DNA of 64,000 nt from positions 5,332,001-5,396,000 of the forward strand of contig NC_092672.1 in NCBI RefSeq assembly GCF_964355755.1, read 5' to 3'. The notes beneath the pieces were generated by a model that made no database searches, had not been told where the DNA came from, and saw nothing but the letters and a program-made list of their open reading frames with translations. The position numbers were made by a program, and so were the translations under genes. Origin of the DNA: Antedon mediterranea. Taxonomy: Eukaryota; Animalia; Echinodermata. Below are positions 3,116 to 30,376 of the stretch, in pieces (position 1 is the stretch's first letter; each line of letters starts with the position of its first letter).

Positions 3116-3259
3116 TCAATATGTTCCAATTCCCATCAACCACTGTCGGGTATACTTTAAAACCTGGAACATCAACTCAACGAATTCACAAAAGCTAATG
3201 ATTGAGATGCCGATGTATAACCCAGCTGTACCGCCAATATCGCTAATTAGATTCTCCAA
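3116..3259 (-). CDS. DEG/ENaC last exon: TM2 with degenerin site and GxS selectivity filter, short tail
   Basis: [47 protein letters not shown]. Confidence 0.9.
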   Translation of the reverse strand: MENLISDIGGTAGLYIGISIISFCEFVELMFQVLKYTRQWLMGIGTY

Positions 3260-30200: not shown

Positions 30201-30376
30201 TAAGAGTGATAATCATACAATCCTCTTTCCTTTTTTTCAATCTTTTCTGAGTTGTCCACTACAGTTGGTTTTCTGTCCGGTAGGTATCCTCTTTCCTCTG
30301 ATGTTTTCATAAATTGTTCTGGGTAAACTTCAGAAGAAGTCCAAAATATTCGGCTGTCATTTCCGCTAGAGTCCAT
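3116..30376 (-). CDS. DEG/ENaC (ASC family) sodium channel subunit with a large multidomain extracellular insert; 28 coding exons, ~1549 aa
   Basis: Exons spliced in frame: 30376-30014, 29415-29274, 28136-28017, 25980-25855, 24184-24074, 21185-21033, 20713-20573, 19942-19829, 17584-17477, 17175-17056, 16768-16640, 16181-15933, 15716-15551, 15114-14963, 14848-14027, 10143-10009, 9535-9383, 8614-8489, 8033-7736, 7384-7278, 7019-6856, 6489-6370, 5978-5870, 5389-5317, 5103-5046, 4263-4193, 3772-3697, 3259-3116 (4650 nt total). Hallmarks: TSTHGL pre-TM1 motif, TM1, [24 protein letters not shown], Cys-rich thumb, [12 protein letters not shown]2 [24 protein letters not shown]. Confidence 0.9.
8077..8181. 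repeat. (TA)n microsatellite
   Basis: ~100 bp of TA dinucleotides. Confidence 0.97.
8489..10143 (-). CDS. Three further LDLa repeat exons (exons 16-18)
   Basis: [50 protein letters not shown]; all phase 1-1. Confidence 0.85.
9189..9260 (+). pseudogene. tRNA-like sequence (tRNA-Pro-like body, TGT in the anticodon position); likely pseudogene or repeat head
   Basis: Foldable cloverleaf with A box TGGTCTAGTGG and B box GGTTCGAATCC, but mismatches in the acceptor and T stems and C instead of U33. Confidence 0.6.
10326..13948 (-). mobile_element. Gmr1-like Ty3/Gypsy LTR retrotransposon, internally deleted (Gag-PR, no RT)
   Basis: Two 525-bp LTRs (10326-10850, 13424-13948), TG...CA ends, apparently identical. 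PBS TGGTGGCAGCGGT next to the 5' LTR (tRNA-Leu-like); PPT AAAGAGGGGGGAG before the 3' LTR. Inserted into a MITE. Confidence 0.93.
10924..13086 (-). CDS. Retrotransposon Gag (SCAN-like capsid domain, CCHC knuckle), aspartic protease and degenerate integrase N-terminus
   Basis: ETYRQRFR...LEQL...WVKEHKP (SCAN-like), [25 protein letters not shown], then QLVVL...VLKFSHDI and [14 protein letters not shown] resembling a decayed integrase start. Confidence 0.88.
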   Translation of the reverse strand: MADKQSTTRSGREYSGGDETDSDVESVQSIQPEQQAEESGPTSGHNPTGADSFSKDFLLLMQQQMQQQNIMMQQMMKQQERSRQEDNERRREDMERQERLRREDMEKQQALVMALMDKQKDSEEKRLKDIMRLKEVQIAKLSDSDDIENYLTTFERIANTYEWRKEHWVVKLIPHLTGKARAAYASLPVTESNQYDIVKKAILQRYDITEETYRQRFRSIKKKSEESYREMYVRLKDLFTKWARPADKSKDDLAEIVILEQLIDIMPTGVQIWVKEHKPDSGLNAAELADNYFQARKGIDFEKKFQNRKHENRNNQEKTVKGTPEVDSKGNNNPPDNFHKSQSDARQPLVCRRCKKVGHIERFCRSKDGFLSTKTDTVSKPCTPYICRGLVEGCDCEILIDSGCDMTLVHSDLVAAKKINRAEQAKITCRCVHDHVQAYPTAFVNIKVNNEDHNLLVGVCSDLPRDVILGRDFPKFRDLLGKGDKNHDRHSFVATRDHARKEKLREENELKSEKASGVISHQLDDVVNFQEEFGHLDGQLLSNNPPKEKVHKTRSEKRKVRKEFAKTKEAQSSQDSELDILDIGRDKIKDYQVKDRTLISLREQMLVQKDDDTIKIVCKDGILFRQVFTKHQTEPIEQLVVLYHCSNSVLKFSHDISLKKYCKASKYKTKFKDFMIPMSVIVSEPFRQIYMNIVCSLLVIINDYVVCYYGVFKFYRIGVG
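14027..14848 (-). CDS. Ser/Thr/Asp-rich low-complexity exon with (GS)n array and RKRR furin-type site (exon 15)
   Basis: 822-nt open exon, phase 1-1, within ORF 14013..14882; ends [15 protein letters not shown]. Confidence 0.8.
14963..15716 (-). CDS. SRCR (group A-like) domain split over exons 13-14
   Basis: VRLVDG...[19 protein letters not shown]...[17 protein letters not shown]...[13 protein letters not shown]. Confidence 0.92.
15137..15559. repeat. ~30-35-bp minisatellite filling the intron within the SRCR domain
   Basis: TACGAACTATGAACCCCTAGCTGCGTGTATACT variants. Confidence 0.9.
15933..16181 (-). CDS. Kringle domain exon (exon 12)
   Basis: Manual translation: [27 protein letters not shown]...[15 protein letters not shown]...CDVPP; NYCRNPD is the kringle signature. 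Confidence 0.88.
16640..16768 (-). CDS. LDLa repeat exon (exon 11)
   Basis: [44 protein letters not shown] flanks, phase 1-1. Confidence 0.8.
17056..17175 (-). CDS. EGF-like domain exon (exon 10)
   Basis: [39 protein letters not shown], phase 1-1. Confidence 0.85.
17477..28136 (-). CDS. Seven LDL-receptor class A repeat exons (exons 3-9 of the channel gene)
   Basis: Each is a 108-153 nt phase 1-1 exon with six Cys and an acidic C-D-x3-D-C-x-D-x-S/E/T-D-E-type motif, e.g. [48 protein letters not shown]. Confidence 0.9.
18907..19085. mobile_element. MITE family B (~165 bp palindromic, TIR AGCTTGGTTCCCACTAG); more than 12 copies
   Basis: Other copies or fragments at ~2461-2627, 4664-4972 (nested), 6001-6145, 7580-7730, 19180-19313, 19482-19770, 20088-20236, 20367-20513, 21249-21395, 21590-21665, 34002-34152, 35160-35545. 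Confidence 0.85.
21733..21957. mobile_element. MITE with AGGCCAATTYACACAGACGAGCGG TIRs carrying a family-B fragment
   Basis: Near-perfect 24-bp TIRs; CTAGTGGGAACCA at ~21834. Confidence 0.7.
22150..23417 (+). mobile_element. Helentron-associated (HINE/DINE-1-like) element with internal ~420-bp duplication
   Basis: Subterminal inverted repeat ACCTCCGCC / GGCGGAGGT, (GTTT)n tract, 3' short hairpin and CTAG in T-rich flanks; ~22290-22693 is duplicated at ~22912-23321. Confidence 0.7.
24334..24476. mobile_element. MITE family A (~150 bp, Tourist/PIF-like, TAA TSD); about 12 copies in the window
   Basis: TIR AGCTCTGTCTACACTATCAAAC. Other copies at ~2772-2918, 8343-8480, 10257-14012 (split by the LTR element), 15805-15921, 24908-25035, 35850-35985, 43822-43975, 49499-49637, 57148-57290, 57892-58002, 62342-62502. 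Confidence 0.85.
26932..27700. repeat. 105-bp tandem minisatellite, ~7 units
   Basis: Unit CACCCGAATACGCGTCACAATGG...CACACTAATA. Confidence 0.95.
28269..28577. mobile_element. TTAA-flanked MITE (Kolobok/piggyBac-like); truncated copy at ~25392-25685
   Basis: TTAA|AGAT(G/T)TATTGT ... ACAATACATCT|TTAA; the internal sequence is shared with the 25.4-kb copy. Confidence 0.7.
28617..28992. repeat. GC-rich 38/40-bp minisatellite, ~9-10 units
   Basis: GGCAGAGCGTTGCGTCACCTCGGTCGTCGTCAGGG(GCA/GA) repeats. Confidence 0.95.
30014..30376 (-). CDS. DEG/ENaC exon 1: cytoplasmic N-terminus, HG gating motif and TM1
   Basis: [15 protein letters not shown]...[32 protein letters not shown] followed by a GTAAGT donor. 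Confidence 0.9.

Follow-up and report, generated by a model that had tools for sequence, protein, structure and literature searches.

The analysed window is a 64,000-nucleotide stretch of the Antedon mediterranea genome (contig NC_092672.1, positions 5,332,001 to 5,396,000), and all positions given here refer to it. Between 3116 and 30376, its minus strand carries a gene predicted to encode a DEG/ENaC channel subunit whose finger region holds a long chain of LDLa, EGF-like, kringle, SRCR and Ser/Thr-rich modules. All 28 exons were found on the minus strand where the original prediction, made from the sequence alone, had put them (Table 1). After the splice sites were listed and the exons were joined, a coding sequence of 4650 nt was obtained, running from the ATG at 30376 to the stop at 3116; it encodes 1549 amino acids and has a single, terminal stop. 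The continuous frame that had been claimed is therefore open over its whole length, and it requires two details that had not been given, the acceptor of exon 12 and the donor of intron 14. Use of 16172 as the exon 12 acceptor was ruled out because it creates a TAA at the exon 11 junction, which places the acceptor 9 bases upstream, at 16181. Twenty-six introns are GT-AG and one, intron 14, with its donor at 14963, is GC-AG.

The insert comprises 16 module exons (exons 3-18) and measures 975 residues (169-1143), in agreement with the earlier estimate. It lies between finger helix 1 and the remaining finger, and its modules follow one another as seven LDLa, an EGF-like module, one LDLa, a kringle, an SRCR domain, the Ser/Thr-rich spacer and three LDLa. 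Because the module exons are all of phase 1-1, with the SRCR pair being 1-2 and 2-1, a skip from exon 2 to exon 19 would stay in frame and yield 574 residues. A nested plus-strand gene was ruled out: each open frame on that strand between 3 and 30 kb is either a repeat frame or an antisense one.

Five sequencing runs cover exons 9-15; none is recorded as RNA, and one of them, X1, was guessed to be RNA. Four runs were compared over 14000-26900, a span that has junctions 2-3 and 18-19 outside it. An X1 contig of 460 nt lacks 114 nt equal to intron 14, with a one-base shift allowed by a shared G; this intron is read through in contigs of X2, X3 and X5. In a second X1 contig, the match ends exactly at 16181 and 131 further letters follow, compared with the 129 nt of exon 11. 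The X1 contigs support both the GC donor of intron 14 and the 16181 acceptor. Among the 12 exonic differences listed, six are silent and six are missense (five of them in the spacer), and none introduces a stop.

The assignment of the gene product to the DEG/ENaC family is predicted from its transmembrane segments, HG motif, FPxxTxCN motif, cysteines and selectivity filter. Pfam was run exon by exon on 26 of the 28 exons (exons 25 and 26 were not included) and gave ASC matches on exons 1, 2, 20, 21, 27 and 28. Hydropathy peaks at residues 92 and 1518 indicate two transmembrane segments, the first preceded by H74-G75 and the second carrying the filter G1519-I-S1521, with Ser1508 at the degenerin site. 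The FPSITICN motif contains Cys138, and 14 core cysteines were counted in the sequence. The fold was checked on a relative, P0068, and not on the 1549-residue protein itself. The structure predicted for P0068 (predicted local distance difference test score, pLDDT, 90.5) has the palm, thumb, finger and knuckle of DEG/ENaC channels and matched the ENaC gamma ectodomain with Z 33.4 (root-mean-square deviation 2.8 over 350), FaNaC with Z 32.9 and ASIC1 with Z 30.1; the top Foldseek rank went to ASIC, and the PDB scores for ENaC and ASIC were near each other. Since P0068 aligned to human alpha-ENaC at 50-145 and 274-576, the modules fall in the alpha-ENaC interval 146-273, which we take to be the location of the GRIP domain. 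In the available parts of two papers, GRIP is the protease-controlled domain of ENaC (PMC8791634, PMC13488063). A complex prediction of LDLa1 with the P0068 core, made without an alignment, scored 0.00, which speaks neither for nor against contact.

Within the insert, the 11 LDLa repeats and the kringle of the original prediction exceeded their Pfam cut-offs, LDLa in 11 of 11 exons and the kringle with 44.3 bits against 34.3, and its SRCR domain, split across two exons, scored 61.2 and 42.6 bits. The EGF module held only in part, being EGF-like by its cysteines and reaching 14.8 bits against a cut-off of 21.5; in BLAST comparisons with the fetched relatives, it matched just two hemichordate proteins. 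The Ser/Thr-rich spacer of exon 15 (34% Ser plus Thr, net charge -35) had no BLAST match among these relatives. Ser-Gly runs close to acids are a possible glycosaminoglycan attachment motif, and those of exon 15 could be glycosaminoglycan carriers.

Many relatives with the same layout were found. Exon 19 as query matched 8 of 59 candidates and, in the representative library, 140 proteins; the core of a Saccoglossus relative gave 45 matches among 2089, and a profile of shorter relatives gave 59 matches. In an architecture census of the first 177 proteins, made with profiles built in this analysis, both channel halves were present in 91 relatives, modules lay between the halves in 56, and LDLa was present in 51. 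The first LDLa starts 12-32 residues past the N-profile in 50 of these 51, and modules outside the interval between the halves occurred only in P0014, a two-gene fusion. The module-bearing matches with a named source come from hemichordates (Saccoglossus, Ptychodera, Glandiceps), echinoderms (Patiria, Acanthaster, Asterias, Anneissia, Amphiura) and amphioxus, and the cargo differs among paralogues: LDLa only (2-13 repeats), kringle, PAN, CUB with TSP1, F5/8C, SRCR or HYR. In the supplement of PMC10507113, as far as it was available, models from another pipeline also join the first transmembrane segment and FPxxTxCN straight to LDLa1. In the Saccoglossus proteins P0032, P0064 and P0173, about 500 extra residues with weak fn3 matches and a signal-like start precede the first transmembrane segment; this extension is possibly a fusion in the gene model or a third membrane segment.

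The claim of one gene with modules in its finger region is well supported, and the insertion point is shared by 51 relatives. Because of the Pfam scores and the shared layout, a chance origin of the layout is excluded, and we hold with high confidence that the locus is one real gene unit. The caveat that similar automated models might exist proved apt, as many RefSeq models have the layout; the gene accordingly belongs to a so far unstudied subfamily and cannot claim novelty as a single case, since dozens of unstudied sea-star and acorn-worm models share its plan.

The first LDLa is an orthologous, fixed element of this subfamily. In 44 of 47 full-length relatives, where chance would give about 4, the first LDLa was closer to LDLa1 than to any other of the 11 Antedon repeats; the second matched LDLa2 in 34 of 47, and the last matched LDLa11 in 18 of 44. 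Mean identity was 0.49 for first repeats versus 0.34 for middle repeats. In classic LDLa, the acid five places after Cys4 contacts calcium and lysine. An acid occupies this place in 9 of 45 first repeats versus 111 of 135 middle repeats, the rows compared being paralogues and not independent. These values are in keeping with LDLa1 being a structural element and not a ligand-binding repeat of the classic kind. The exon 19 finger segment PPDW...PDYSDL is a family signature that is conserved together with LDLa1. In sea stars, the order is four to six LDLa, a Cys-rich module, kringle, SRCR (absent from P0034), a polybasic site and three to four LDLa. The start of the sea-star kringle, which was detected by a profile built in this analysis and not by Pfam, aligns with the residues gained through the 16181 acceptor.

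A furin-type site, RKRR, is the sole R-x-[RK]-R in the Antedon protein. At the same place, after SRCR or kringle and before the last three to four LDLa, each of the 8 sea-star orthologues has a polybasic site; in a crinoid relative, RKKR follows a spacer. The chance of any such site in a shuffled insert was 0.01-0.24 per protein in the echinoderm group. In the structural model of Patiria P0034, the site lies in a disordered linker (pLDDT <50), and LDLa1-2 are confident. The fixed orthologous first LDLa and the conserved furin-type site go beyond what had been predicted, and both bear on the probable mechanism. Polybasic sites, one to three per protein, were also observed in sister channels with long fingers and no modules, found in sea stars, urchins and acorn worms (P0042, P0043, P0094, P0100, P0105, P0107, P0137), where they look like ENaC-style cleavage control outside vertebrates.

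A phylogeny, which the original prediction had named as a check, was built on the C-terminal channel core only, for a chosen subset of 46 rows with no vertebrate ENaC or FaNaC among them. The LDLa-finger rows grouped on the core alone: 28 LDLa-bearing rows of hemichordates and echinoderms formed one clade (support 100/99) that contained an echinoderm group of 10 (97/88), and the Antedon gene adjoined the crinoid P0059 (97/80). A quick tree of 60 rows was concordant (32 rows, SH-like approximate likelihood-ratio test, SH-aLRT, 99). The sister group consisted of module-free ambulacrarian channels and one annelid protein. The frog ASIC, the single ASIC in the tree and its root, flagged for long branches, lay far from the clade. 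The LDLa plus CUB protein P0149 and amphioxus proteins were also placed outside it. Amphioxus DEG/ENaC models (LOC118418200, LOC118430223) carry modules between the same two channel halves, namely F5/8C, kringle and link modules and no LDLa, whereas the Antedon gene has 11 LDLa; because these models lack LDLa and stand outside the LDLa clade, the insert site was possibly filled more than once. LDLa and CUB in the finger, together with polybasic sites, were observed in P0149, P0160, P0164 and P0166. The first three of these were placed outside the ambulacrarian clade, which hints that this architecture extends beyond deuterostomes or had two origins.

Considering the constant pore, the fixed first LDLa and the exchangeable distal cargo, a receptor-channel fits best, and we assign a probability of roughly 0.4 to the reading that the gene encodes a furin-cut, ligand- or matrix-tethered receptor-channel whose arms gate a cation pore. 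One full-length transcript would give a DEG/ENaC subunit with the 975-residue chain in its finger, and the subunits would assemble as a trimer. A single furin cut at RKRR would turn the closed loop into two arms and release nothing. The long arm (eight LDLa, kringle, SRCR and spacer) would be anchored by the first transmembrane segment and Cys138, and the short arm (three LDLa) by the core and the second transmembrane segment, with LDLa1 serving as a structural adaptor on the channel core. When proteins, glycans or matrix from outside bind these arms, finger and thumb would shift and so gate the pore. If a sensor is swapped on a constant channel, cargo after LDLa1-2 is expected to differ between paralogues, as was seen. 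More tentatively still, hemichordates and echinoderms might possess a large class of such receptor-channels, with a constant pore, a fixed LDLa adaptor and exon-shuffled arms of LDLa, kringle, SRCR, PAN, CUB/TSP or F5/8C through which proteins, glycans or microbes would open the channel directly, the furin-cut arms being an echinoderm form at the spot of ENaC's protease switch.

Several observations weigh against the receptor-channel reading. The classic lysine-binding site of LDLa consists of three acids, and its full form is present in none of the 11 repeats. The relatives are automated gene models, the N-terminal half is missing in P0007, P0020, P0026, P0027, P0039, P0057 and P0059, and a receptor-channel role for every family member is a prediction from sequence. 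The furin-type site occurs in 10 of 11 members of the echinoderm group versus 11 of 71 other module-bearing rows and was not found in the partial brittle-star model P0007, so it is not a family-wide need; moreover, the sea-star sites belong to two lineages of paralogues and cannot be counted as independent. ENaC, according to the available part of PMC8791634, is not activated by one cut and requires two. In oocytes, no currents were obtained with the EGAS proteins of C. elegans (PMC10424705). With regard to the transcript, X1, the presumed RNA run, also covers intron sequence; the 131 letters past 16181 have no displayed placement on exon 11; and junctions 2-3 and 18-19, which lie beyond the compared 14000-26900, are without read support.

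Nearly as likely, though we also rate it below even odds, is that the modules serve only in anchoring, clustering or trafficking of the channel through matrix, mucus or endocytic partners; the gate would then answer to another stimulus, such as pH, Ca2+, Na+ or a small peptide, or this subunit would be a silent partner in a heteromer. Arrays of LDLa, kringle and SRCR are general adhesion and scaffold modules, the long acidic spacer could uncouple the distal modules from the core, and many paralogues share chromosome-scale contigs, so heteromers are possible; the silence of EGAS homomers (PMC10424705, in part) points the same way. The position of the modules argues otherwise, as they are confined to the finger, where ligands and proteases exert control in ENaC and FaNaC, and so does the joint conservation of LDLa1 and the exon 19 finger segment.

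It is unlikely that the insert is an autoinhibitory lid resembling GRIP, the middle of which would be freed by the furin cut and a cut by an outside protease near LDLa1-3, such that release would open the channel as a protease or wound sensor. Modules of the kringle, SRCR and LDLa kinds are commonly met in proteins that bind proteases, the insert occupies the GRIP position, and the furin-type site is conserved in echinoderm orthologues. Activation by double cleavage is known for ENaC (PMC8791634, in part). This need for two cuts makes the lid less likely, because the ectodomain has a single R-x-[RK]-R; the insert showed neither a conserved second site nor an inhibitory tract, and most hemichordate members are without the site.

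A main transcript that joins exon 2 directly to exon 19 and yields an ordinary channel, with the modules forming a nested or alternative gene that perhaps starts at a Met of signal-peptide-like character in intron 2, is very improbable. Such a skip would keep the frame, several database models begin at LDLa, one older Saccoglossus model passes from helix 1 into the finger, and the intron 2 Met-start was the most hydrophobic of 27 exon read-throughs (3.4; the next, a core exon, 2.6), but T-rich acceptor tracts read as hydrophobic residues anyway, no stop, terminal exon or transmembrane segment of its own follows the modules, the FPxxTxCN region is joined directly to LDLa1 in 51 relatives, whose models stem from more than one annotation pipeline, and LDLa1 is orthologous in 44 of 47. 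The hydrophobic stretch of intron 2 is probably such a T-rich acceptor tract, and minor cassette isoforms are possible.

The remaining features of the window are listed with the exons in Table 1. The retroelement of intron 15 has two identical repeats and had no reverse transcriptase match; it is likely recent and non-autonomous. Several introns contain very high-copy dispersed repeats.

Table 1. Exons of the channel gene and other features of the window.
Feature	Position	Strand	Content
Exon 1	30014..30376	-	ATG, cytosolic N-terminus, HG motif, first transmembrane segment; ASC E 1.4e-10
Exon 2	29274..29415	-	FPSITICN, finger helix 1; ends at family motif LPYY (insert start)
Exon 3	28017..28136	-	LDLa1, fixed orthologous repeat of the subfamily
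Exon 4	25855..25980	-	LDLa2, likewise largely orthologous family-wide
Exon 5	24074..24184	-	LDLa3 (Pfam)
Exon 6	21033..21185	-	LDLa4 (Pfam)
Exon 7	20573..20713	-	LDLa5 (Pfam)
Exon 8	19829..19942	-	LDLa6 (Pfam)
Exon 9	17477..17584	-	LDLa7 (Pfam)
Exon 10	17056..17175	-	EGF-like module, under Pfam cut-off, E 0.035
Exon 11	16640..16768	-	LDLa8 (Pfam)
Exon 12	15933..16181	-	Kringle; acceptor at 16181
Exon 13	15551..15716	-	SRCR, first half (Pfam)
Exon 14	14963..15114	-	SRCR, second half; GC donor
Exon 15	14027..14848	-	274-residue acidic Ser/Thr-rich spacer, GS repeat; furin-type RKRR (residues 993-996) at its end
Exon 16	10009..10143	-	LDLa9 (Pfam)
Exon 17	9383..9535	-	LDLa10 (Pfam)
Exon 18	8489..8614	-	LDLa11 (Pfam)
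Exon 19	7736..8033	-	Subfamily-specific finger segment PPDW...PDYSDL, finger helix 2/3, beta-ball start
Exons 20-23	7384-7278, 7019-6856, 6489-6370, 5978-5870	-	Beta-ball, palm, thumb, knuckle (exons 20-27)
Exons 24-27	5389-5317, 5103-5046, 4263-4193, 3772-3697	-	Beta-ball, palm, thumb, knuckle (exons 20-27)
Exon 28	3116..3259	-	Degenerin-site S1508, second transmembrane segment, G-I-S filter (1519-1521), stop
GS repeat, exon 15	14700-14768		Length differs between runs
Intron 2 stretch	28137-28190	-	In-frame Met and hydrophobic stretch leading into exon 3
Long terminal repeat retroelement, intron 15	10321-13949		Identical 531-nt repeats (10321-10851, 13419-13949); 720-residue frame with SCAN and aspartic-protease domains
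Open frame	199-933	+	245 codons, no Pfam match
Tandem array, intronic/upstream	15137-15559		Units of ~61 nt
Tandem array, intronic/upstream	26932-27679		Units of 105 nt
Tandem array, intronic/upstream	28625-28992		Units of 40 nt
Tandem array, intronic/upstream	30607-30923		Units of 28 nt
Open frame	38365-38928	-	188 codons, no Pfam match; by eye, end of a long interspersed element reverse transcriptase
GIY-YIG-bearing frame	47724-49172		Two inverted copies; Penelope-like by eye, under Pfam cut-off
SNF2-type helicase exons	50942-57808	+	ERCC6L/PICH-like by eye; long acidic exons, weak Helicase_C match only
NIF3/DUF34 gene	60703-62993	-	Two exons

No description of the LDLa-finger architecture was found in the literature, in a search that matched the slash-spelled 'DEG/ENaC' poorly and had subscription papers outside its coverage. 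The accessible text of PMC9949801 and PMC9234716 has no 'LDL', and that of PMC10855680 and PMC10396339 has nothing on this architecture. In PMC10507113, as far as available, uncharacterised ambulacrarian channels stand in clade B and the main text is without 'LDL' or 'lipoprotein'; its sequence set includes LDLa-finger members, and its trimmed alignment (also seen in part) has 11 rows with PDYSDL and no insert. Family members bear the database names 'uncharacterized', 'LRP2-like' and 'degenerin-like'. The subfamily may have gone unremarked because its members are mislabelled and the inserts are trimmed from family alignments.

The stimuli that open characterised DEG/ENaCs are protons, short peptides, bile acids, force and proteases. 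If the receptor-channel reading is true, macromolecular ligands would join this list of stimuli through swappable protein- or glycan-binding arms, and invertebrate deuterostomes might be able to convert pattern recognition or contact with matrix rapidly into changes of membrane voltage. The subfamily offers natural experiments on the coupling of finger and gate and on the origin of ENaC protease control.

Compared with known systems, the gene is a novel variant of a known channel family, and not a new kind of channel until gating by the arms is shown. The name 'LRP2-like' is misleading: Pfam found only LDLa, EGF-like, kringle, SRCR and ASC in the 26 exons, the topology is that of a two-transmembrane channel, and the signal peptide, YWTD propeller-EGF unit, single transmembrane segment and NPxY tail of the LDL receptor family were not found. 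Vertebrate ENaC (SCNN1A/B/G) shares the fold, as judged on the P0068 model, and an extra finger domain with a furin site. However, the ENaC GRIP is a short beta-domain from which two cuts release an inhibitory tract, whereas the Antedon insert consists of 975 residues of modules with one site; the SCNN1 arrangement, a GRIP with two sites flanking an inhibitory tract, was not found. The ligand of FaNaC acts on the finger. FaNaC and other peptide-gated DEG/ENaCs have the same fold as the P0068 model (Z 32.9, tied with ENaC), but the FaNaC ligand, a short peptide, sits in a pocket of the finger and, unlike in the Antedon gene, no modules are added. C. elegans EGAS-1 to -4 likewise combine a DEG/ENaC core with repeated extracellular modules; by description rather than by sequence, these are EGF repeats, whereas the Antedon gene has 11 LDLa with one weak EGF-like module among them. 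No protein named EGAS was among the matches of the relative searches, and a different topology of EGAS is suggested because the cloning primers show a hydrophobic, signal-like start (PMC10424705, in part). The closest systems are the ambulacrarian LDLa-finger models, for example Acanthaster LOC110982619, Patiria LOC119719240 and LOC119746217, Asterias LOC117300278, Anneissia XP_033114115.1 and Saccoglossus LOC100372922, which share the insertion point, the orthologous LDLa1-2 and PPDW...PDYSDL, with core identity to the Antedon gene of at most 56%. The sea-star models are also alike in the succession of LDLa, kringle, SRCR, furin site and three to four LDLa; the Antedon gene differs from them in the 274-residue Ser/Thr-rich spacer ahead of the furin site and in a recognisable pair of EGF-like module and LDLa where sea stars have a degenerate Cys-rich module.

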